64,000 nucleotides of DNA from an uncultured Bacteroidota bacterium (GTDB lineage Bacteria > Bacteroidota > Bacteroidia > Flavobacteriales > Flavobacteriaceae): contig CACJHA010000001.1 of NCBI GenBank assembly GCA_902593075.1, forward strand, positions 124 to 64,123, read 5' to 3'. Both the position numbers and the translations under genes were made by a program. A model generated the notes under the pieces. The model was not told the origin of the DNA. It saw nothing but the letters and a program-made list of their open reading frames with translations, and did no database searches. Below are positions 653 to 61,049 of the stretch, piece after piece (positions within the stretch are counted from its first letter, which is position 1; the number at the start of each line of letters is the position of its first letter).

Positions 653-724
653 AGCCAATGACGAGATTTGAACTCGTGACCTCTTCCTTACCAAGGAAAC
701 GCTCTACCCCTGAGCTACATCGGC
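653..724 (-). tRNA. tRNA-Thr (anticodon GGT)
   Basis: The reverse complement GCCGATGTAGCTCAGGGGTAGAGCGTTTCCTTGGTAAGGAAGAGGTCACGAGTTCAAATCTCGTCATTGGCT folds as a 72-nt cloverleaf. It has a 7-bp acceptor stem, GCTC/GAGC D stem, anticodon loop TTGGTAA and T loop TTCAAAT. No CCA is encoded. Confidence 0.93.
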
Positions 725-738
725 ATTAAAAATTTGTA

Positions 739-972
739 TTATTTTAAATTAAGATTTTTATCTTTTAAAATTAATGATATTTTAAAAAATTGTATTGAAA
801 CAATTATAACGTTTAAAAATATTATTGAATATGAAGTATCGATTATCCCATAAGTTAACCATAAAGAAGCACCTACCATATTAATTATTCTTAACCATAA
901 CATGTTGTTAATTAAAAAAGAAATTATAACAAAAATTGCAGCTGCCCAGCCTATAATATCAAGAGTATCCAT
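739..972 (-). CDS. Small (77 aa) three-TM membrane protein, YgjV/CBU_0592/SemiSWEET-like topology; family uncertain
   Basis: Intact ATG-to-stop ORF with three hydrophobic segments (IIGWAAAIFVIISFLI / IINMVGASLWLTYGII / SIIFLNVIIVSIQFF). It starts 41 nt after tRNA-Gly and ends 14 nt before tRNA-Thr(GGT) on the same strand. Confidence 0.5.
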   Translation of the reverse strand: MDTLDIIGWAAAIFVIISFLINNMLWLRIINMVGASLWLTYGIIDTSYSIIFLNVIIVSIQFFKISLILKDKNLNLK

Positions 973-1013
973 CTTATGTAAATATTTAATTAAAAATTGA
1001 AGTAAATAAAAAG

Positions 1014-1086
1014 AGCGGGAGACCGGGTTCGAACCGGCGACAATTAGCTTGGAAGGCTAATGCTCTACCAACTGAGCTACTCCCGC
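1014..1086 (-). tRNA. tRNA-Gly (anticodon TCC)
   Basis: The reverse complement GCGGGAGTAGCTCAGTTGGTAGAGCATTAGCCTTCCAAGCTAATTGTCGCCGGTTCGAACCCGGTCTCCCGCT is a 73-nt cloverleaf with anticodon loop CTTCCAA and T loop TTCGAAC. Confidence 0.93.
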
Positions 1087-1094
1087 AAACTGAG

Positions 1095-1176
1095 TGGGGA
1101 GAGCAGGATTCGAACCTGCGAAGGTAAAACCAACAGATTTACAGTCTGTCCTCGTTGGCCGCTTGAGTATCTCCCC
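1095..1176 (-). tRNA. tRNA-Tyr (anticodon GTA), long variable arm
   Basis: The reverse complement GGGGAGATACTCAAGCGGCCAACGAGGACAGACTGTAAATCTGTTGGTTTTACCTTCGCAGGTTCGAATCCTGCTCTCCCCA is 82 nt. It has anticodon loop CTGTAAA and a 13-nt variable arm. Confidence 0.92.
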
Positions 1177-1187
1177 AATTAATTAAG

Positions 1188-1261
1188 AGCCGATGGAGGG
1201 ACTCGAACCCACGACCTGCTGATTACAAATCAGCTGCTCTAGCCAGCTGAGCTACATCGGC
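1188..1261 (-). tRNA. tRNA-Thr (anticodon TGT)
   Basis: The reverse complement GCCGATGTAGCTCAGCTGGCTAGAGCAGCTGATTTGTAATCAGCAGGTCGTGGGTTCGAGTCCCTCCATCGGCT is 74 nt with anticodon loop TTTGTAA. There is one U-U mismatch in the T stem (GTGGG/CCCTC). Confidence 0.88.
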
Positions 1262-51581: not shown

Positions 51582-52538
51582 TTAAAAAACAGATTCTGCG
51601 ATACATTTAATATTATCTGAACGTCCCATAGTATAATAATGAAGAAAAGGAACTCCGGCTTTTTTTAGTTCCTTGCTTTGTTCAATACACCATTCAATTC
51701 CAACTTGTCTTATTTGATTGTTGTTTTTACACTTTATAACTGATTTGATTAAATCATCTGGTAAGTCAACATAAAATCTTTGGGGAAGAACGTTTAGTTG
51801 TTTTTTTGTTGAAATTGGTTTTAACCCAGGGATTATTGGAACATTGATTTTATTTTCCAAACATTTTTTTTGAAAGTCAAAAAACTTTTGATTATCAAAA
51901 AACATCTGGGTAACGATATAATGGGCACCTGCGTCAATCTTTTTCTTCAAAAAATGTATATCACTGTCAAAACTTGGAGCCTCAATATGTTTTTCTGGAT
52001 AACCTGAAACTCCAATGCAAAAGTTTGTTTTTGCGTTATTTTGAATTTCTTCGTCTAAATATTTTCCGTTATTAAGGTCAACAATTTGTTTGACAAGATC
52101 ACTTGCAAAAGAATTTCCATCAACACTTGGTTTAAAATATACCTCAGATTTTAATGAATCCCCTCTAAGAGCTACAACATTTTCAATTCCTAAGAAATCT
52201 AAATCTATGAGCAGATTTTCCGTTTCTTCTTTTGAAAACCCTCCACAAAGAACATGTGGAACAGCATCTATATCATATTTATTTTGCAGGGCAGCACATA
52301 TTCCTACTGTTCCTGGTCTTTTTCTTATGACATGTTTTTGCAACAAACCGTTATCTAACTCTCTGTAAACATACTCCTCTCTATGATAGGTTACATCTAT
52401 AAAGGGTGGTTTAAACTCCATAAGTGGATCAATTGCATCAAAAATCGATTCAAGATTTTGTCCTTTTAAAGGCGGTAATATCTCAAAAGTAAATTGAGAT
52501 GAATCCTTCTTATTTTTAAGATGATCTATAATTTTCAT
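51582..52538 (-). CDS. metF: Methylenetetrahydrofolate reductase
   Basis: 318 aa: FTFEILPP, NVVALRGD and YIVTQMFFD. Confidence 0.9.
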   Translation of the reverse strand: MKIIDHLKNKKDSSQFTFEILPPLKGQNLESIFDAIDPLMEFKPPFIDVTYHREEYVYRELDNGLLQKHVIRKRPGTVGICAALQNKYDIDAVPHVLCGGFSKEETENLLIDLDFLGIENVVALRGDSLKSEVYFKPSVDGNSFASDLVKQIVDLNNGKYLDEEIQNNAKTNFCIGVSGYPEKHIEAPSFDSDIHFLKKKIDAGAHYIVTQMFFDNQKFFDFQKKCLENKINVPIIPGLKPISTKKQLNVLPQRFYVDLPDDLIKSVIKCKNNNQIRQVGIEWCIEQSKELKKAGVPFLHYYTMGRSDNIKCIAESVF

Positions 52539-52541
52539 AGT

Positions 52542-55229
52542 TTAAAAGTTTAAATTTGGTTTTAACCACTTAATTGCATTTTCAAGAGTTATTTTTTTTC
52601 TACTTGCATAATCCTCTACTTGATCTTTAGAAATTTTCCCCAATCCAAAATATTTTGCACTAGGATTTGCAAAATAATATCCTGAAACAGAGGACGCAGG
52701 CCACATCGCTAGACTTTCTGTCAATGAAACACCAATATTTTTTTCAACATTAAGAATATTCCAAATTGTTTTTTTCTCTAAATGATCTGGACATGCAGGA
52801 TATCCTGGAGCAGGTCTAATGCCAGAGTACTTTTCTTTAATTAAATCATCATTGTTAAATTTCTCCTCAGGTGAATACCCCCAGTATTCAGTTCTCACCT
52901 TTTTGTGTAAATATTCTGCATATGCTTCAGCCAATCTATCGGCTAAAGCTTTTACCATTATTGAGTTATAATCATCGTTATTATTTTCATAGTATTTGGA
53001 TAATTTGTCTGCTCCAATACCTGTAGTAACACAAAAAACACCTAAATAATCGCAATGTCCAGTATTTTTGGGAGCAATATAATCAGACAGAGACAAGTTC
53101 GGTTTATCATTTCTTTTCATTAGCTGTTGCCTTAATGTATAAAAAGTTCCCAAAAGCTTTTTTTTATCCTTTGGAGAATATACCTCAATATCGTCACCTA
53201 CGCTGTTAGCGGGAAATAACCCAAAAATAGATTTTGCTTGAAGAGATTTATTTTTTAAAATTTTTTGAAGTAACTGATTAGCATCAGAAAATAATTCTTT
53301 AGCTTGTTTACCAACAATTTTATCTTCCAATATTTCTGGATATCGACCATGTAAATCCCAAGTTCTAAAAAAGGGACTCCAATCAATATATTCAATTAAT
53401 TCTTCTAAATTTTGATTTTTTGTAATTGTGATTCCAAGGTTCTTAGGTTTGGTGGTTTCAAACTCTTCCCAATTTAATTTTATTTTATTTTTCCTAGCTG
53501 ATTTTATACTTATAAGTTCTTTTTTAACTTGCCTTTGTAAAAATTTATTTCGAAAATCTTCATACTCTTTTCTTATCGTTTGTTTATAAACAACTGATGT
53601 TTTTTTATTTAATAGACTTCTTGCAACGGTAACTGCTCTAGATGCATCATTTACATGTACAACTGTAGTATTTAGTTCTGGGGTTATTTTCACAGCCGTA
53701 TGCGCTTTAGAAGTTGTAGCTCCTCCTATTAATAGTGGAATATTTATTTTCTGTCTTTTTAGCTCCTGAGCTATAAAAATCATTTCATCCAAGGATGGTG
53801 TGATTAATCCTGATAATCCGATAAGATCAACATTTTCATCTTTTGCTGTTTTTAAAATCTTTTCAGGTGGCACCATGACTCCTAAATCTATTATTTCAAA
53901 ATTATTACAGCCTAGAACAACACTAACTATATTTTTTCCAATATCATGTACATCTCCTTTAACTGTCGCTATTAGAATTTTACCAGCAACTTTTTGTTTT
54001 CCACTTTCTTTTCCTGATTCAATATAAGGTAATAGGTATGAAACTGCATTTTTCATTACTCTCGCGGATTTAACAACTTGTGGTAAAAACATTTTACCAG
54101 ACCCAAACAAATCTCCAACTATATTCATTCCATTCATCAAAAAAACTTCAATAACCTCTATTGGCTTACCAACTGTTTTTCTAGCTTCTTCAACATCATG
54201 ATGTATAAATTCATCTATACCTTTTACTAGAGAATGGGTAATTCTACCTTGTAAATCTAAGTTTCTCCAGGACTTTTCTTTGAGTTTGGTTGTCTTCTTT
54301 TCATCAGAAAGGTCTTCAGCAAATTCAAGCAATCTTTGAGTTGCATCATCCCTTCGGTTTAATAAAACATCCTCAATGTGTAGAAGTAAATCTTTTGGTA
54401 TTTCGTCATAAACTTCAAGCATTTCTGGATTTACAATACCCATGTTCATACCATTTTTAATTCCATGATATAAAAATGCAGAATGCATGGCTTCTCTGAC
54501 TTTATTATTACCTCGAAAAGAAAAAGAAACATTGCTTACGCCCCCACTAACACTTGAATAAGGTAAATTTTTTCTTATCCAATTGGCTGACTTAAAAAAA
54601 TCGATAGCATTTGTCTTATGCTCATCCATTCCAGTTGCAACAGGAAAGATATTTGGATCAAAAATGATGTCCTCAGGAGGAAAATGAACTTTTTTTGTTA
54701 AAATTTTGTATGCTCTTTCACATATTTGAATTCTCCTCAAATAATTATCTGCTTGTCCATTTTCATCAAATGCCATAATAACTACTGCTGCACCATATCT
54801 TCTAATCTTTGTGGCATTTTCAACGAATTTCTTTTCACCATCTTTTAAACTTATAGAGTTTACTACACACTTACCTTGAACCAGTTTTAATCCAGCTTCT
54901 ACAACCTCCCATTTAGAGGAATCAATCATAATTGGGATTCTAGAAATATCTGGTTCTGAAACAATTAAATTTAAAAATTTTGTCATTGCTTCAACTCCAT
55001 CAATCATACCTTCATCCATGTTGACGTCCAAAATCTGTGCTCCCCCTTCAACTTGATCCCTAGCAACTTCAACCGCAGATTTAAAGTTATCTTCTTTGAT
55101 ATATTTTAAAAATTTTCTAGATCCAGTAACATTTGTCCTTTCTCCAATATTTACGAAATTAGATTCTGGAGTTATAATTAGGGGTTCTAGACCAGATAAT
55201 TTTAGATACTTATCCATCCTCGAATTCAA
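52542..55229 (-). CDS. metH: Methionine synthase, pterin-binding + cobalamin-binding + AdoMet-activation modules (split MetH, large part)
   Basis: 895 aa: [14 protein letters not shown] and the B12 motif [12 protein letters not shown] plus SGL. The C-terminal activation domain contains [12 protein letters not shown]. The track start is TTG 55229, and ATG at 55217 ([13 protein letters not shown]) is an alternative. Confidence 0.93.
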
Positions 55230-56209
55230 ATTTTTCTAGGTTTATAATTTCTAGCAACTTCAGCTATTAATCTAATATGTTCAGGCTTTGTCCCACAACA
55301 ACCTCCAACTATATTAATTATATTTTCTTTTAAGTAATTTTCAATAAGATCTGACATTTCAGTTGCTGTTTGGTCATAAGCACCAAAGGCATTTGGAAGA
55401 CCAGCATTTGGATGTACAGACGTGTAGGTGTCCGTGATTTTTGATAATCTCTTTACGTAGGGTAAGAGTTGGTCAGCTCCTAATGCACAATTAAATCCAA
55501 TACTTAAAAGTGGGATATGTGAAATTGAAATAACAAATGCTTCCACAGTTTGACCCGACAAGGTTCTTCCACTTGCATCCGTAATTGTACCACTAACCAT
55601 TACTGGAATATCTAATTTTTTTTCGCTTTTTATTTTATCAATTGCAAATAGAGCCGCTTTAGCATTTAAAGTGTCAAAAATAGTTTCTACAAACAAAATA
55701 TCAACACCGCCATCGATTAAGCCAAGAATCTGCTCTGAATAACAGTATACTAAATTGTCAAATGATACGGTTCTGTGTGCAGGATCATTAACATCTGGAG
55801 ATAAACTTGCCGTTCTATTGGTTGGTCCAATTGAACCTGCAACAAAGATTTCAGAATCTTTTGTTTTATTACAAAACTCATCTTTTGCTTCCTTAGCAAT
55901 TTTTGCACCCGCATGATTAAAATCATACGCGTATTTTTCCATTCCGTAGTCTGCAAGACTTATAGATGTTGAGTTGAAAGTGTTTGTCTCTATTATATCA
56001 GCTCCTGCCTCTAAATAGCTCCTATGTATTGTTTTAATTAGATCTGGTTTGGTTATATTAAGTAAGTCATTATTTCCTTTCAGTGGCTCTTTATGATTAA
56101 CAAATCTTTTTCCTCTAAAGTCATTTTCATCAAGAGAGTGTTCTTGAATCATAGTGCCCATTGGTCCATCTAATATCATTATTCTTTCATTAAGGATTTT
56201 TTCTATCAT
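55226..56209 (-). CDS. metH: Homocysteine S-methyltransferase domain protein (split MetH, N-terminal module)
   Basis: 327 aa: [15 protein letters not shown] and the Zn ligands GFNCALG and GGCCGT. Confidence 0.9.
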
Positions 56210-56267
56210 CTTTGTTGAATTTGATTACAAATGATTAAAAAATAGATTTTTTTGTTTTTAATAAATT

Positions 56268-56708
56268 CTATATCCTCTTACCGTTTAGAATAATGTCAAA
56301 ATTTATAGTTGCAACACTGTCTATCATTTTAGAAACGGAACAGTACTTTTGGTAAGATAATTCTGCAGCCCTTTTGGCCTTTTCAGTAGTAATATTTTTT
56401 CCATCTAAGAAAATTTCAATATCAATTGAATCAAATGTTGAAGGAATTTTATTTTTGTCTCTGTTACCTAAAACTTTCATTTTTAATGATGTTGGATTGA
56501 TTTTTTGTTTATTCAAAATATCAATTATATCAATACTACTGCACCCAGCCAAGCCCATAAGTAAAACTTCCATTGGACTGACCCCTCTTACAACTCCCGT
56601 TTTTTTTGATCTATTGTCTAAAAAAACCCTGTGTCCTTGAGTGTTTTTTGCTTCAAATAGATAATCGCTGTTTACTCTTTCTAATGTTATTTCCATTTTC
56701 AGATTCAA
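56268..56708 (-). CDS. OsmC/Ohr-family protein
   Basis: 146 aa with the OsmC fold blocks SPMEVLLMGLAGCSSIDI and YCSVSKM. The ATG at 56696 is an alternative start. Confidence 0.8.
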   Translation of the reverse strand: MNLKMEITLERVNSDYLFEAKNTQGHRVFLDNRSKKTGVVRGVSPMEVLLMGLAGCSSIDIIDILNKQKINPTSLKMKVLGNRDKNKIPSTFDSIDIEIFLDGKNITTEKAKRAAELSYQKYCSVSKMIDSVATINFDIILNGKRI

Positions 56709-57663
56709 ATAATATTTTACTTAAAATTTTCGACATTTTTTTATTTTCTATCAAAAATCCGTCATGCCCATGAACAGATTGTATAATATGATGATATACA
56801 TTTTGCTTAACTGACTTGATTAAGTTATAGGTATAAATATCTCTTTCAAGTGTGAAATAATAATCACTATCAATACTTACAATATGTATATTAGATTCAA
56901 TATTAGATAATACATCCTTCGGGTCTTTTTCGTCTCCAGTAATATCAACTGTTGACAATAAGTGATTCATCGCGTTGTAGGCCTCAAGGTTAAATCTTTT
57001 TAGAATACTTTCACCATGAAATGAAAGCCACTCTTCAACCAAAGAGGTGCCTTTTTCGTTTTTTTTATTAGAAAACCTATTGTTTAAAGAGATTGGAGTT
57101 CTGTAACTTAACATGGCATGTATTCTGGCATCTTCAAGAGGATTTTTTGAGTTTTTTAAAATTCTTTTTTGTAAATACGTGTTAGCTAAAATCCAATCAG
57201 ATATTTGCCAATCACAAGCTACAGGAATAATGTTTTCGGCAAATTTATTTTTTAGTGAGGCCATTTCCCATGTAATACCCCCTCCAATAGATCCACCAAC
57301 TATAGCAAATAAACTAGAAACACCAATTTTTTCAAGCCCCAAATAAAACATCTTGGCAATATCCTTACAGCTCAATTCCATATAATTTTCAATTGTTGGA
57401 TGATAATATCCGTTGCCAGGTATGTCAAAGGCAATAACAGTGAAAAATTTCAAATCAATAGCTTTGTCAGCCCCAACAATTTCTGACCACCAACCTTTGT
57501 CTCCAGTTAAACTTGAATTACCCGTTAAGGAATGATTAACAAGTATAATTGGTGAATCTCCGATTTCTTGACCATATAGTTGGTAGGATAGATAAACTTT
57601 ATCAAACATAAAGCCAGTATTTGACTTAAAATTTTTTATAGTAATGCTATGCAATTTTGGCAT
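56653..57663 (-). CDS. metX: Homoserine O-acetyltransferase
   Basis: 336-aa alpha/beta hydrolase: ILVNHSLTGNS, the nucleophile elbow GGSIGG and HGHDGFL. Confidence 0.85.
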   Translation of the reverse strand: MPKLHSITIKNFKSNTGFMFDKVYLSYQLYGQEIGDSPIILVNHSLTGNSSLTGDKGWWSEIVGADKAIDLKFFTVIAFDIPGNGYYHPTIENYMELSCKDIAKMFYLGLEKIGVSSLFAIVGGSIGGGITWEMASLKNKFAENIIPVACDWQISDWILANTYLQKRILKNSKNPLEDARIHAMLSYRTPISLNNRFSNKKNEKGTSLVEEWLSFHGESILKRFNLEAYNAMNHLLSTVDITGDEKDPKDVLSNIESNIHIVSIDSDYYFTLERDIYTYNLIKSVKQNVYHHIIQSVHGHDGFLIENKKMSKILSKILFESENGNNIRKSKQRLSI

Positions 57664-57671
57664 ATTTAATA

Positions 57672-58943
57672 TTAAATTTTTGCAAATGATTGTTTTAAAT
57701 CTTCTTTTAAATCATCCAAGTTTTCAATTCCAACAGATATTCTTACTAAATCAGGAGTAACGCCAGTGCTTTTTTGTTCATCAATATTTAATTGTGAATG
57801 CGTTGTGCTTGAAGGATGAATTATCAAAGATTTGGTGTCCCCAATATTAGCTAGTAGTGCAAATATTTTCGTGCTCTCAGCAACTTTTTTTGCACCTTCA
57901 AAACCTTTTTTTAGACCAAATGTAACAATGCCACTTGAACCCTTTTTAAGATATTTTTTAGCTAATTGATTATATTTTGAAGAATTAAGTCCAGGATAGT
58001 TTACCCAACTTACTTCACTCTGCTCTTCTAACCATTTTGCAATATTTAAAGCATTTTCAGAATGCTTTTGCATTCTAACTTCTAAAGTTTCTAAACCTTG
58101 AATTACTTGAAAACTATTTAGAGGGCTTGGTGCACTACCTAAATCTCTTAACCCTTCAACCCTTGTTTTAGCAATGAATGCTAAAGGGCCGAGTGCTTCA
58201 TGATATTTTAGACCGTGATAAGAAGGTGATGGTTCAGTAAATTCAGGGAACTTCCCACTGGAATAATCAAAGGTTCCGGCATCAATGATTATTCCACCCA
58301 AGGTGGTTCCATTTCCTGTTATATATTTAGTGAGAGAGTGGATAACTATGTTGGCTCCGTGTTCTATAGGATTTAGAAGTGCAGGAGAAGCTATAGTATT
58401 ATCAACTATAAAGGGGACTTTTGCATCTTTTGCATGCTTACTAATTCCTTCCAAATCAATAACATCTAGCTTTGGATTTCCTAAGGACTCAGCAAAAAAC
58501 ACTTTAGTGTTTGGCTTAAGAGCATCTTTAAAATTATCAACATTATCTGGATCAACAAAAGTTGTAGTTATGCCAAATCTAGGTAAAGTATTGTTAAGCA
58601 TATTGTATGTCCCGCCATATAGACTATTTGATGCAATAATATGGTCACCTGATTTTAATAATGTCATAAATGTTGTTGCAATCGCTGAAGTTCCAGAAGC
58701 AGTAGCTACTGCAGCAACACCTCCTTCTACAGCTGCCAATCTTTGTTCTAAAACATCATTAGTTGGGTTATTAAGTCTAGTATAAATGTAACCTGACTCG
58801 GATAGCGAAAATAAATTTGCCGCATGCTCAGAGTCATTAAAAACATACGAAGTTGATTGATAAATTGGTACGGCTCTGGTGCCTTGTGTTTGTTTCACAT
58901 CATGCCCTGCATGAAGTGCCTTAGTTGCTAATTTTAAACTCAT
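57672..58943 (-). CDS. metY: O-acetylhomoserine aminocarboxypropyltransferase (sulfhydrylase)
   Basis: 423 aa: YTRLNNPT, the PLP-Lys block HSLTKYI.GNG and SLIIHPSSTTH. Confidence 0.92.
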   Translation of the reverse strand: MSLKLATKALHAGHDVKQTQGTRAVPIYQSTSYVFNDSEHAANLFSLSESGYIYTRLNNPTNDVLEQRLAAVEGGVAAVATASGTSAIATTFMTLLKSGDHIIASNSLYGGTYNMLNNTLPRFGITTTFVDPDNVDNFKDALKPNTKVFFAESLGNPKLDVIDLEGISKHAKDAKVPFIVDNTIASPALLNPIEHGANIVIHSLTKYITGNGTTLGGIIIDAGTFDYSSGKFPEFTEPSPSYHGLKYHEALGPLAFIAKTRVEGLRDLGSAPSPLNSFQVIQGLETLEVRMQKHSENALNIAKWLEEQSEVSWVNYPGLNSSKYNQLAKKYLKKGSSGIVTFGLKKGFEGAKKVAESTKIFALLANIGDTKSLIIHPSSTTHSQLNIDEQKSTGVTPDLVRISVGIENLDDLKEDLKQSFAKI

Positions 58944-58954
58944 TTTTGAAATAT

Positions 58955-60211
58955 TTATTTATTTAAGTAATCATTTATTTTTTTTACATAATTTATGTTC
59001 TCCCAAGTAAATAAATCCACTTTGTGATTTACTTCTTGATTATTTTTATTTAGAAAATTTTTATTAATTTTTTTATGTTCTCTTCCCATATGACCATAAG
59101 ATGAGGTTTCAAAGTAGATAGGGTTTCTAAGTGATAGATTTTTTTCAATTGAGTAAGGTCTCAAATCAAAAATTTTATAAATCATCTCAGTAATTTCTGA
59201 ATTTGTTAGTTTAACCTTCGAAGTTCCAAAAGTATTTACATTAATTGATGTGGGTTCTGCTATTCCGATTGCGTAGCTCAATTGTACTAGTATCTTGCTT
59301 GCGATTCCTGAAGCAACTAAATTCTTAGCTATATGCCTAGAGGCATAAGCTGCACTTCTATCAACTTTGCTGGGGTCTTTACCACTAAAAGCACCTCCTC
59401 CGTGGGCTCCCCATCCTCCATATGTATCGACAATTATTTTCCTTCCCGTAAGACCAGTATCTCCATGAGGTCCACCTATAACAAACTTGCCAGTTGGATT
59501 AATAATAATTTTAGTGTTTTTATTATAAAGAGATCTAATATTTTGATGCTCGTTATCAAATACACGAGGTAATAAAATTTCGACAATATCTTTTTTGATT
59601 TTGTCAACCATTTTTTTGTCATCTTTTTCGAAAGGATCATGTTGTGTTGAAACTAGTATTGTATCAATTGAAACTGGATTTCCGTTTTTATCATATTCTA
59701 CTGTCACTTGAGATTTTGAATCTGGACGTAAATATCCAATTTGATTTCCTTGTCTTCTTAAAATAGACAATTCCTTTAGTATTTTGTGAGATAAATCTAA
59801 AGTTAAAGGAATCAAGTTTTCAGTTTCTTCCGTTGCATAACCAAACATAATTCCTTGGTCACCAGCGCCTTGGTTTTCCTTCACACTTTTTTCAACACCT
59901 CTGTTAATATCTTCTGACTGAGAATGAATTAAAGAAGACACTTCACATTCATTTGCGCTAAATTTAATTTTTGAATCCGTATATCCAATCTTTTCAATTG
60001 TTTCTCTTACAATTTTCTCTACGTTTATCTGAGCATTTGATTTTACTTCACCTGCGACTATTACTTTATTAGTTGTAACGAGTGTTTCACAGGCTACTTT
60101 ACTCTCGGAATCAAAAGCTAAATAATTGTCAAGGATTGCGTCACTAATTTGATCAGATACTTTATCAGGGTGGCCCTCGCTAACTGATTCAGAAGTAAAA
60201 AATGTATTCAT
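58955..60211 (-). CDS. metK: S-adenosylmethionine synthetase
   Basis: 418 aa: FTSESVSEGHPDK, GAGDQGIMFGYA, GGPHGDTGLTGRKIIVDTYGG and GGGAFSGKDPSKVDRS. Confidence 0.96.
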   Translation of the reverse strand: MNTFFTSESVSEGHPDKVSDQISDAILDNYLAFDSESKVACETLVTTNKVIVAGEVKSNAQINVEKIVRETIEKIGYTDSKIKFSANECEVSSLIHSQSEDINRGVEKSVKENQGAGDQGIMFGYATEETENLIPLTLDLSHKILKELSILRRQGNQIGYLRPDSKSQVTVEYDKNGNPVSIDTILVSTQHDPFEKDDKKMVDKIKKDIVEILLPRVFDNEHQNIRSLYNKNTKIIINPTGKFVIGGPHGDTGLTGRKIIVDTYGGWGAHGGGAFSGKDPSKVDRSAAYASRHIAKNLVASGIASKILVQLSYAIGIAEPTSINVNTFGTSKVKLTNSEITEMIYKIFDLRPYSIEKNLSLRNPIYFETSSYGHMGREHKKINKNFLNKNNQEVNHKVDLFTWENINYVKKINDYLNK

Positions 60212-60316
60212 TTAAATTGCTTTCAGGAAGGATTTGAAGATTACTTTTGAAAGCAATTCTGCTTTAGCATTTTTTTTTCGAGGTTTGCAATCAGACAAAT
60301 CCTTCCTCGTTATTAT
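60212..60316 (-). promoter_or_regulatory. Structured 5' leader of the metK-metY-metX-osmC-metH-metF operon; candidate SAM-responsive element (class unresolved)
   Basis: The minus-strand RNA contains GGAAGGAUUUG (60306-60296), complementary to CAAAUCCUUCC (60236-60226). It also contains AUUGCUUUCA (60257-60248), complementary to UGAAAGCAAU (60225-60216), which ends 4 nt before the AUG. A competing local hairpin AAAGCA-GAAU-UGCUUU is possible. Confidence 0.5.
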
Positions 60317-60321
60317 TTCAG

Positions 60322-60329
60322 CAAATATA
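60322..60329 (-). promoter_or_regulatory. Candidate -7 promoter box (TATATTTG) for the metK leader
   Basis: TAnnTTTG match about 110 nt upstream of the metK ATG. Confidence 0.45.
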
Positions 60330-60434
60330 ATAAATTTTATTAAAAATTATTCTAAAAAAAAACCTGCTTAATTTTTTATGTAATAAAATTGGTATTATTT
60401 TAGTGAACATACTAAAACACTTTTAATTCTATTC

Positions 60435-61049
60435 ATGCACATAGCTATTGCTGGTAATATAGGCGCTGGAAAAACTACACTTACAAAATTACTGTCCAAA
60501 CATTACAGGTGGCAGGCTCACTATGAAGAAGTTCTAGAGAACCCATATTTAGATGATTTTTACCATGAAATGGAAAGGTGGTCGTTTAATCTACAAATCT
60601 ATTTTTTATACAATAGATTTAGTCAAATTCTTGATATTCAGAAAAGTGGAAAAAAAATTATTCAAGATAGATCTATATACGAGGATGCTTATATTTTTGC
60701 GCCAAATTTACATTCAATGGGACTCCTTACAAAAAGAGATTTCGAGAACTATAAAAATATGTTTTCTCTCATGGAAAAACTGGTAAAGGGCCCAGATATA
60801 ATGATTTATTTAAGGAGCAGTATTTCAAAACTTGTTGAAAATATTCATCTTAGAGGAAGAGAATTTGAAAACTCAATAAGTATTGATTATTTAAGCAGAT
60901 TGAATGAGCGGTATGAAGCGTGGATTCAAAATTACGACAAAGGTAAAATTATTTCAATAGATGTAGATAAAGTAAATTTTGTAGGTGATCCAAAGGCTTT
61001 TGGTAAAGTTATAAGCCTTATTGATAAGGAGATTAATGGTTTATTCTAA
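60435..61049 (+). CDS. Deoxynucleoside kinase
   Basis: 204 aa with P-loop IAGNIGAGKTT, QDRSIYED and the dNK/dCK-family layout. Confidence 0.88.
   Translation: MHIAIAGNIGAGKTTLTKLLSKHYRWQAHYEEVLENPYLDDFYHEMERWSFNLQIYFLYNRFSQILDIQKSGKKIIQDRSIYEDAYIFAPNLHSMGLLTKRDFENYKNMFSLMEKLVKGPDIMIYLRSSISKLVENIHLRGREFENSISIDYLSRLNERYEAWIQNYDKGKIISIDVDKVNFVGDPKAFGKVISLIDKEINGLF

Follow-up and report, generated by a model that had tools for sequence, protein, structure and literature searches.

The closest described systems are the classical SAM-II riboswitch (the metA element, RF00521) and the SAM-II long-loop family (RF01726). The former was introduced by Corbino et al. in 2005, with binding of S-adenosylmethionine (SAM) shown, and it starts just after the promoter and acts as a genetic OFF switch (PMC1273637). 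Members either have the ribosome-binding site within the strand that forms the pseudoknot or are followed by an intrinsic terminator (PMC9373788, PMC1273637). With the leader described here it shares the single stem, the pseudoknot between the loop and the 3' tail, and the location upstream of methionine and SAM genes. In the Sinorhizobium SAM-II riboswitch reported in 2022 the regulated element is a Shine-Dalgarno sequence inside the aptamer, a terminator is situated between two AUG codons, and the outputs can be indirect, RNA stability included (PMC9373788). Weinberg et al. (2010, Genome Biol 11:R31, PMC2864571) defined the RF01726 family, and their alignment comprises helix P1, a hairpin within the loop, and a pseudoknot in which UGCA, from the loop's 3' side, pairs with UG.C(U)A of the tail. 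The family description ends at this tail; the published alignment annotates no platform, terminator or start-site helix downstream of it, the only mention in the supplement being that long insertions are possible (PMC2864571). No description of an RF01726 platform was found in the text and alignments of the founding paper or in the literature searched, nor did the latter contain an experiment on any member of the family.

Platforms built from sequestor and anti-sequestor strands are exemplified by the E. coli thiM (TPP) and lysC riboswitches. In the absence of the ligand, a switching strand from the P1 region pairs downstream, while in its presence a helix forms over the initiation region, a scheme that resembles the one proposed below. 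Bacteroidota do not rely on Shine-Dalgarno pairing, and riboswitch gating of translation in this phylum without such a sequence is poorly documented. Of these systems, lysC is mentioned in PMC12121620.

The window, that is, the whole stretch of 64,000 nucleotides that was analysed, contains seven genes, from metK to metF, that form a minus-strand array behind an intergenic region of 223 nt (60212-60434), none of the gaps between them exceeding 58 nt. The ORFs and NCBIfam matches bear out the first-pass annotation, an earlier note on this DNA, on all these points (Table 1). Across the 223-nt spacer lies a P-loop kinase-like gene (60435-61049), which runs in the opposite direction. A direct reading of the minus strand between 60329 and 60209 gave the leader text as the first-pass annotation had quoted it, including the -7 box and the local hairpin AAAGCA-GAAU-UGCUUU (60265-60250). 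The -7 box is separated from P1 by 12 nt. In 133 of the 135 homologous loci a T[AT]nnTTTG motif is found at most 40 nt upstream of P1, mostly at a distance of 8-15 nt, and the 2010 alignment already carries a curator's reminder to annotate the 'UAnnUUUG promoter' (PMC2864571). Transcription would start about 5-8 nt downstream of the box, a few nucleotides before P1. Since the box precedes P1 so closely across the loci, segment A (see below) is almost certainly transcribed.

Table 1. Features of the metK leader and of the operon behind it (positions are those of the window; segments as defined in the text).
Feature	Position	Strand	Basis
-7 promoter box TATATTTG (TAnnTTTG, Bacteroidota-type)	60322..60329	-	sequence
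SAM-II long-loop aptamer, full length	60254..60314	-	RF01726 match
P1, 5' strand CGAGG	60305..60309	-	Rfam alignment structure line
P1, 3' strand CCUCG	60279..60283	-	Rfam alignment structure line
Small hairpin in the long loop, AUU 60300-60298 with GAU 60292-60290	60290..60300	-	Rfam structure line, published SS_cons
Pseudoknot, 5' strand UGCA, 3' side of the loop	60286..60289	-	published SS_cons_1 mapped onto the window
Pseudoknot, 3' strand UGC(U)A, within the conserved tail AUGCUAAAGCAG	60265..60269	-	published SS_cons_1
Segment A AGGAAGGAUUUG, switching sequence	60296..60307	-	loop L1 together with the three bases of the P1 5' strand that precede it
Segment B AAUUGCUUUCA	60248..60258	-	can pair either with AAAGCA of the aptamer tail (60265-60260) or with B'
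GUAAUC, complementary to the loop GAUUGC (60292-60287); minor ligand-free helix	60239..60244	-	MFE folds
Segment A' CAAAUCCUUCCU, anti-aptamer strand, 12 bp with A	60225..60236	-	homolog pairing
Segment B' UGAAAGCAAUU, predicted start-site sequestor strand	60215..60225	-	homolog pairing
metK start codon	60209..60211	-	ORF and TIGR01034 match
metK	58955-60211	-	TIGR01034, 508 bits, match from residue 4
metY	57672-58943	-	ORF, NCBIfam
metX-like	56653-57663	-	ORF, NCBIfam
OsmC-family	56268-56708	-	ORF, NCBIfam
metH N-part	55226-56209	-	ORF, NCBIfam
metH C-part	52542-55229	-	ORF, NCBIfam
metF	51582-52538	-	ORF, NCBIfam
Predicted regulated operon metK...metF	51582..60211	-	ORFs, NCBIfam; gaps <=58 nt

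The leader had been likened to SAM-II and SAM-V riboswitches, and an Infernal search against Rfam, the check suggested at that time, placed it with the former kind: RF01726 matches 60314-60254 of the minus strand with 74.0 bits, well above its gathering score of 44, the E-value being 1.8e-12 in the window-wide search and 8.4e-15 in a search of 301 nt. The match spans positions 1-60 of the 60-position model, is not truncated, and is the sole riboswitch match in the Rfam scan of the whole 64-kb window. The likeness to SAM-V (RF01826) did not hold, as no match was obtained at E up to 10 in 60150-60450, and the classical SAM-II model (RF00521) stayed below its threshold (15.0 bits against a gathering score of 36, E = 0.43). 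The SAM-I/S-box riboswitch (RF00162), whose ligand and pathway are shared and whose fold is unrelated, gave no match at its gathering threshold anywhere in the 64 kb and none in the leader at E up to 10, in agreement with the earlier statement that the S-box core is lacking. The leaders of all 34 relatives that were scanned against Rfam also match RF01726 (44-81 bits).

The published RF01726 structure maps onto the window base for base. The bases 60289-60286 are the pseudoknot partners of 60269-60267 and 60265, and the segments GGAAGGAUUUGUCU...GAUUGCAAACCUCG...AAAAAAAUGCUAAAGCAG agree with the consensus GGAnRG-AUUUGAYU, GnUUGCA-A-CCnC, AAAAARUG-CUAAARYAR. P1, the loop hairpin, the UGCA:UGC(U)A pseudoknot, the A-rich linker and the CUAAAGCAG tail are all present, and the phylum (Bacteroidota), the marine origin and the gene (metK) are those of the family; nothing differs in the aptamer. 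In the 40 homologous leaders described below, the four inner pairs of P1 are constant (40/40) with five pair types at the closing pair, the inner hairpin is paired in 40/40, and P1 and the inner hairpin are 99-100% paired; the pseudoknot bases are invariant, being fixed by the search patterns. An upstream ORF starting with the AUG of the tail (60270) was considered and rejected: its AUG belongs to the pseudoknot strand, which is conserved anyway, and inspection by eye showed no conservation of the frame. Judged by these matches, the leader is in all probability an RF01726 riboswitch, which by homology to the classical SAM-II would bind SAM. The aptamer is already known, and from the same lineage, because marine metagenomic scaffolds carrying this leader occur in the founding alignment with its flanking sequence; one of them, JCVI_SCAF_1096627001039, does not differ from the window between P1 and the end of B'. 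The riboswitch call itself adds nothing; Rfam-based annotation would label the leader.

The window's leader adds to this described aptamer a platform of two further complementarities. The aptamer ends 43 nt before the metK AUG and therefore cannot mask the start site itself; two conserved alternative helices are encoded in the 47 nt that separate it from the AUG. The four segments are arranged in the order A-B-A'-B'. As originally quoted, GGAAGGAUUUG (60306-60296) pairs with CAAAUCCUUCC (60236-60226) over 11 bp, giving A:A', and AUUGCUUUCA (60257-60248) pairs with UGAAAGCAAU (60225-60216) over 10 bp, giving B:B'. Both helices are found at these places, and each is one A-U pair longer, so that A:A' has 12 bp (60307-60296 with 60236-60225) and B:B' has 11 bp (60258-60248 with 60225-60215). 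The extended helices have U60225 in common, and A' and B' are contiguous. The tail hexamer AAAGCA recurs in B', which ends 3-4 nt before the AUG at 60211 (4 nt in the first-pass annotation). The parts had been mis-assigned: the aptamer proper, upstream at 60314-60254, had gone unrecognised, segment A belongs to it, and B, A' and B' constitute the expression platform.

In our reading, to which we give a probability of roughly 0.6, the SAM-II long-loop leader turns the metK...metF operon off when S-adenosylmethionine is high. Without SAM, A' would pair with A, destroying P1 and loop L1, and B would be occupied by the tail (AAAGCA:UGCUUU) and the A-rich linker (GAAA:UUUC). With B' and the A-rich start region left single-stranded, metK would be translated. 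With SAM, the pseudoknotted aptamer would retain A and leave A' unpaired, so that B could pair with B', covering the positions from -14 to -4, and the B:B' helix next to the AUG would block the binding of the 30S subunit. Control of the six downstream genes would follow by translational coupling, by polarity or through decay of the mRNA. Segment A overlaps P1 and L1, so that A:A' can form only at the expense of the aptamer, and the full-length helices A:A' and B:B' should exclude each other because A' and B' are contiguous, share U60225 and follow the order A-B-A'-B'. The hexamer AAAGCA of the tail recurs in B', which allows B to exchange one partner for the other, at the tail or at the start site. 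That the two conserved alternative pairings correspond to the two ligand states is something we infer, and we assume by analogy that a helix ending at about -4 would affect initiation in Bacteroidota.

Compared with the classical SAM-II, the leader has a longer loop with an extra hairpin, no terminator, and an aptamer that ends 43 nt before the AUG. In the Sinorhizobium riboswitch the regulated start codon is located 74 nt downstream (PMC9373788), as compared to 43 nt here, and in the window separate alternative helices, A:A' versus B:B', would link the aptamer to the start site. In contrast to thiM and lysC, there is no Shine-Dalgarno sequence, the sequestor strand B' copies the tail hexamer of the aptamer itself, and the mutual exclusion would follow from contiguity and topology (one shared base and a steric argument) instead of a long shared strand.

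When genomes were scanned with an exact pattern of the aptamer core, 120 loci were obtained, mostly from Flavobacteriia. All of them (120/120) are located upstream of metK, and 45-113 nt separate the end of the aptamer from the AUG. Together with the window they form an unbiased sample of 121 leaders. Thirteen of these, referred to as Type 1, are of the window's type, with UGCUUU close behind the tail, AAAGCA close to the AUG on its 5' side and, from P1 to the AUG, a length of ~107 nt. B and B' co-occur in 13/13 Type 1 leaders of this sample, and neither is present alone. The remaining leaders (Type 2, ~89%) are devoid of B, B' and the start-site helix. They carry strands complementary to the tail (CUUUAGC), to the loop (GCAAUC) and to P1/L1, and with the aptamer locked their platform is nearly unstructured (-2 to -9 kcal/mol). 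A second scan, in which only the tail and UGCUUU were fixed, added further Type 1 leaders, which gave 40 distinct sequences (alignment A1).

In this alignment B:B' is 97% paired, with half of its core fixed by the search pattern in 27/40 sequences. When the 3' partner is slid, the pairing drops from 96% to at most 57%. Two pairs of the helix covary, 61-119 (GC 23, AU 11, GU 4, UA 1) and 69-111 (UA 13, AU 12, CG 5, GC 1, UG 1), the counts representing non-independent events as the 40 homologs are related; the covariation score was reached by 0/500 shuffles. Covariation analysis had been proposed in the first-pass annotation. The core UUGCUUU/AAAGCAA is constant across the homologs and, never varying, carries no covariation. 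The length of B:B' is 8-13 bp, and B' is found 0-6 nt (median 4) before the AUG in 40/40 leaders, though no search pattern fixed B'. This location fits the earlier proposal that B:B' buries the start region. RNAalifold alone predicts P1, the inner hairpin and B:B' from the 40 homologs.

A:A' is 92% paired in the same homologs, compared with at most 63% when the partner is slid. A' scores 8.1 with its own A and 7.0 with swapped A strands, the own partner being higher in 89/110 loci (Wilcoxon p = 3e-12), and compensating variants are observed, such as AGGG with CCCC and AAAG with CUUU. Two-sided changes are few, as the aptamer leaves the A strand little freedom to vary. The linker from A' to B' ranges from -1 to 10 nt. 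By sequence comparison, the platform is of the sequestor type, comprising a conserved predicted helix at the start region, B:B', and an alternative, A:A', that competes with the aptamer. The A-B-A'-B' order had been read as either a pseudoknot or mutually exclusive folds, and the latter option fits the comparative data. A candidate third ligand-free helix is formed by the 3' strand of P1 or the linker with the flank of B (GAAA:UUUC in the window, UCUUAAA:UUUAAGA in others); its own and swapped scores (4.6 and 3.4, own higher in 27/40) are suggestive only. The GAUUGC:GUAAUC helix of the window's MFE fold is not conserved within the close homolog group; GCAAUC, the counterpart of GUAAUC, is common in other Flavobacteriia.

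The ligand-free MFE structure of the window's leader is the A:A' fold (-25.2 kcal/mol), one long irregular hairpin with A:A' at its base, in which B' and the start region are open and B is held by the linker or the tail. The z-score of the leader MFE is -3.6. The nested part of the SAM-bound fold has a constrained MFE of -20.8 kcal/mol; P1, the inner hairpin and B:B' evaluated alone give -14.7 kcal/mol. The A:A' fold is more stable in 38/40 homologs, by a median of 5.4 kcal/mol (4.4 in the window), the other two (L083 and L120) having P1 and B:B' in the MFE fold already without ligand. The 4-bp pseudoknot together with micromolar ligand binding could close a gap of ~5.4 kcal/mol. Upon folding of growing prefixes, P1 and the tail:B hairpin appear first, and A:A' once A' is present. 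In a two-state calculation for the window, with the aptamer either free or blocked, the unpaired fraction of the region from -20 to +3 drops from 0.50 to 0.31. The corresponding values for the 40 homologs are 0.54 and 0.50, a weak difference (p = 0.07), and for the 120 loci the mean difference is 0.03. The calculation supports the mechanism for the window, but its effect across the family is not significant and is counted against it.

The small change in predicted accessibility across homologs also speaks for the most serious alternative, in which the same aptamer acts at the level of the transcript. Rho or an RNase would terminate or degrade the operon mRNA, SAM would either free a pyrimidine-rich strand (60258-60226) or leave metK untranslated, and B:B' would be secondary or an element of processing or stability. 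One leader stands before seven genes and 8.6 kb, and such control would reach all of them, whereas translational control of the first gene only is awkward for seven genes and counts against our mechanism. Moreover, most other Flavobacteriia with this aptamer do not have the start-site helix. Since the Type 2 platforms are without it, the RF01726 family must have another output too, and the Sinorhizobium SAM-II affects RNA stability and termination besides translation (PMC9373788). On the other hand, the leader has no intrinsic terminator. As the first-pass annotation had stated for a U-tract terminator, the scan of 60100-60500 found no terminator-like site; B:B' is an AU-rich stem with no more than 2 G-C pairs, the sequence behind it reads UUAAAUG, and the nearest U run, in Phe-Phe codons, is located ~14 nt beyond the stem. 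A terminator/antiterminator platform was therefore rejected, as 60100-60500 contains no G+C-rich hairpin with a U tract. The covariation of B:B' and its location 0-6 nt from the AUG in 40/40 leaders would be predicted of a sequestor and not of a rut site. Control by Rho or decay is unlikely in our judgment but is retained as a real competitor, because control of the first gene may reach the other six by polarity, coupling or decay.

It is very improbable that A:A' and B:B' form together an H-type pseudoknot which itself binds SAM, with the GCUUU/AAAGC helix beside the AUG as the SAM-II P2, as had initially been suggested. The A-B-A'-B' order is formally a pseudoknot topology, and B' contains AAAGCA, the hexamer of the conserved aptamer tail. 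However, 60314-60254 accounts for the whole RF01726 model with neither A' nor B' involved, so that the aptamer pseudoknot sits upstream, within these positions, and segment A overlaps P1 and L1 of the aptamer; on these grounds a ligand-binding pseudoknot of A:A' and B:B' was rejected. In addition, ~89% of the metK leaders with the same aptamer are without B and B', and helices of 11-12 bp joined by a linker of zero length appear sterically implausible. Chance complementarity in a spacer that is AT-rich (34% G+C in the aptamer) can be dismissed: among 2000 dinucleotide-preserving shuffles of the 111-nt leader the longest perfect stem averaged 5.9 bp and reached at least 10 bp in 29 (1.5%), none (0/2000) had one stem of at least 11 bp and a second of at least 10 bp, and both helices are kept, with compensatory changes, in 40 distinct homologs.

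The same genes stand behind metK in 14/14 Type 1 loci with enough downstream sequence, in the window's order metK-metY-metX-osmC-metH in 12/14. Type 2 leaders are mostly found before a lone metK, with met genes divergently upstream in 51/106 loci and a SAM-I riboswitch within the same 8-kb locus in 14 of the 24 scanned. No SAM-I match was obtained in the 26 Type 1 loci scanned, nor in the window. The Type 1 platform is thus found only where metK heads a fused met operon with no SAM-I nearby. What is new here is modest and apparently undescribed in the literature searched, namely a predicted switching module at the start site, which is conserved and covaries, and its association with the fusion of the operon. 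More tentatively, and with somewhat less than even confidence, the leader may represent an undescribed switching module suited to a phylum that does not use Shine-Dalgarno sequences, in which B toggles between the tail AAAGCA and B' and A' is fused to B', and which arose with operon fusion and loss of SAM-I in uncultured marine Flavobacteriaceae. If true, one leader of 100 nt would do alone what is divided between two riboswitch classes in related genomes. The Type 1 leader is a convenient test case, being short, with both alternative helices well conserved and an energy balance that is plausible. With regard to regulatory evolution, many Flavobacteriia of the majority type have SAM-I by the divergent met genes and the SAM-II long-loop at metK, while the window's clade has a single SAM-II long-loop leader before all seven genes; from the gene order and the SAM-I counts, the genes behind this one leader are, in many relatives, neighbours of another riboswitch class.

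The fused met operon and the platform type go together. An operon of this kind follows the window's type of leader, in which the B:B' helix lies just before the metK AUG, in all 14 loci whose downstream sequence extends to 3.5 kb or more, and the gene order of the window, metK-metY-metX-osmC-metH, is kept in 12 of them. Behind most of the other leaders metK stands alone.

A different platform is present in ~89% of the Flavobacteriia metK leaders sharing the aptamer (loci L001-L120). It consists of strands complementary to the aptamer tail (CUUUAGC), to the loop (GCAAUC) and to P1/L1, with an AU-rich stretch of 20-60 nt after them, and the start-site helix is absent from it in these leaders. 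Once the aptamer is blocked, the majority platform is nearly without structure (-2 to -9 kcal/mol). Of the 24 relatives with the majority leader that were scanned, 14 have a SAM-I/S-box riboswitch (RF00162, 69-90 bits) inside the same 8-kb locus. The window has none, and neither does any of the 26 loci that share its leader type. In the cases checked (L010 and L032), this riboswitch is oriented divergently from metK, immediately ahead of metY and/or metX.

A subgroup of leaders (table) has the linker sequence CCUCUUAAA after P1 and UUUAAGAC flanking B, which allows 7 bp to be formed. The linker CCUCGAAAA occurs together with the B flank UUU(U)C. This correspondence suggests an additional helix in the ligand-free fold, which would also tie up the 3' strand of P1. 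The AUG in the conserved tail AUGCUAAAGCAG starts a 9-codon frame (MLKQNCFQK) ending with UAA; since the pseudoknot strand is the UGC of this tail AUG, a coding role seems unlikely.

Within the operon, methionine synthase is encoded by two ORFs with a 4-nt overlap, the homocysteine-binding part comprising 327 aa and the remainder 895 aa. In the NCBIfam MetX comparison, where the cut-off is 500 bits, the MetX-like protein reaches 163; it is a divergent alpha/beta-hydrolase, not a canonical homoserine O-acetyltransferase equivalog. The ORF of the OsmC family is kept, wherever the sequence suffices, in the relatives' fused operon with the window's leader type (52-89% identity). Read from the TTG listed as its start, this ORF shares 56 nt with metX, thus the true start is probably located further downstream. 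Elsewhere in the window, four tRNA genes are clustered (Rfam RF00005, 57-73 bits).

Positions of the features in the window and in relatives' metK loci (L numbers)
Feature	Position	Strand	Remark
Fused met operon, window's leader type	window 51582-60211; L166, L183, L223, L048, L206 and others	- (window)	
Split methionine synthase	window 52542-56209	-	
OsmC-family ORF	window 56268-56708	-	between metX and metH
MetX-like protein	window 56653-57663	-	
9-codon frame	window 60241-60270	-	stop 60243-60241
tRNA genes	window 653-1261	-	
Majority-type leaders, examples	L010:4475-4610, L032:3320-3451, L017:4006-4135		
SAM-I/S-box matches	L010:4187-4296, L032:4368-4474, L004:6747-6850, L091:4181-4288		ten more loci
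7-bp subgroup	L013, L098, L115, L164, L169, L175, L178, L193		leader regions
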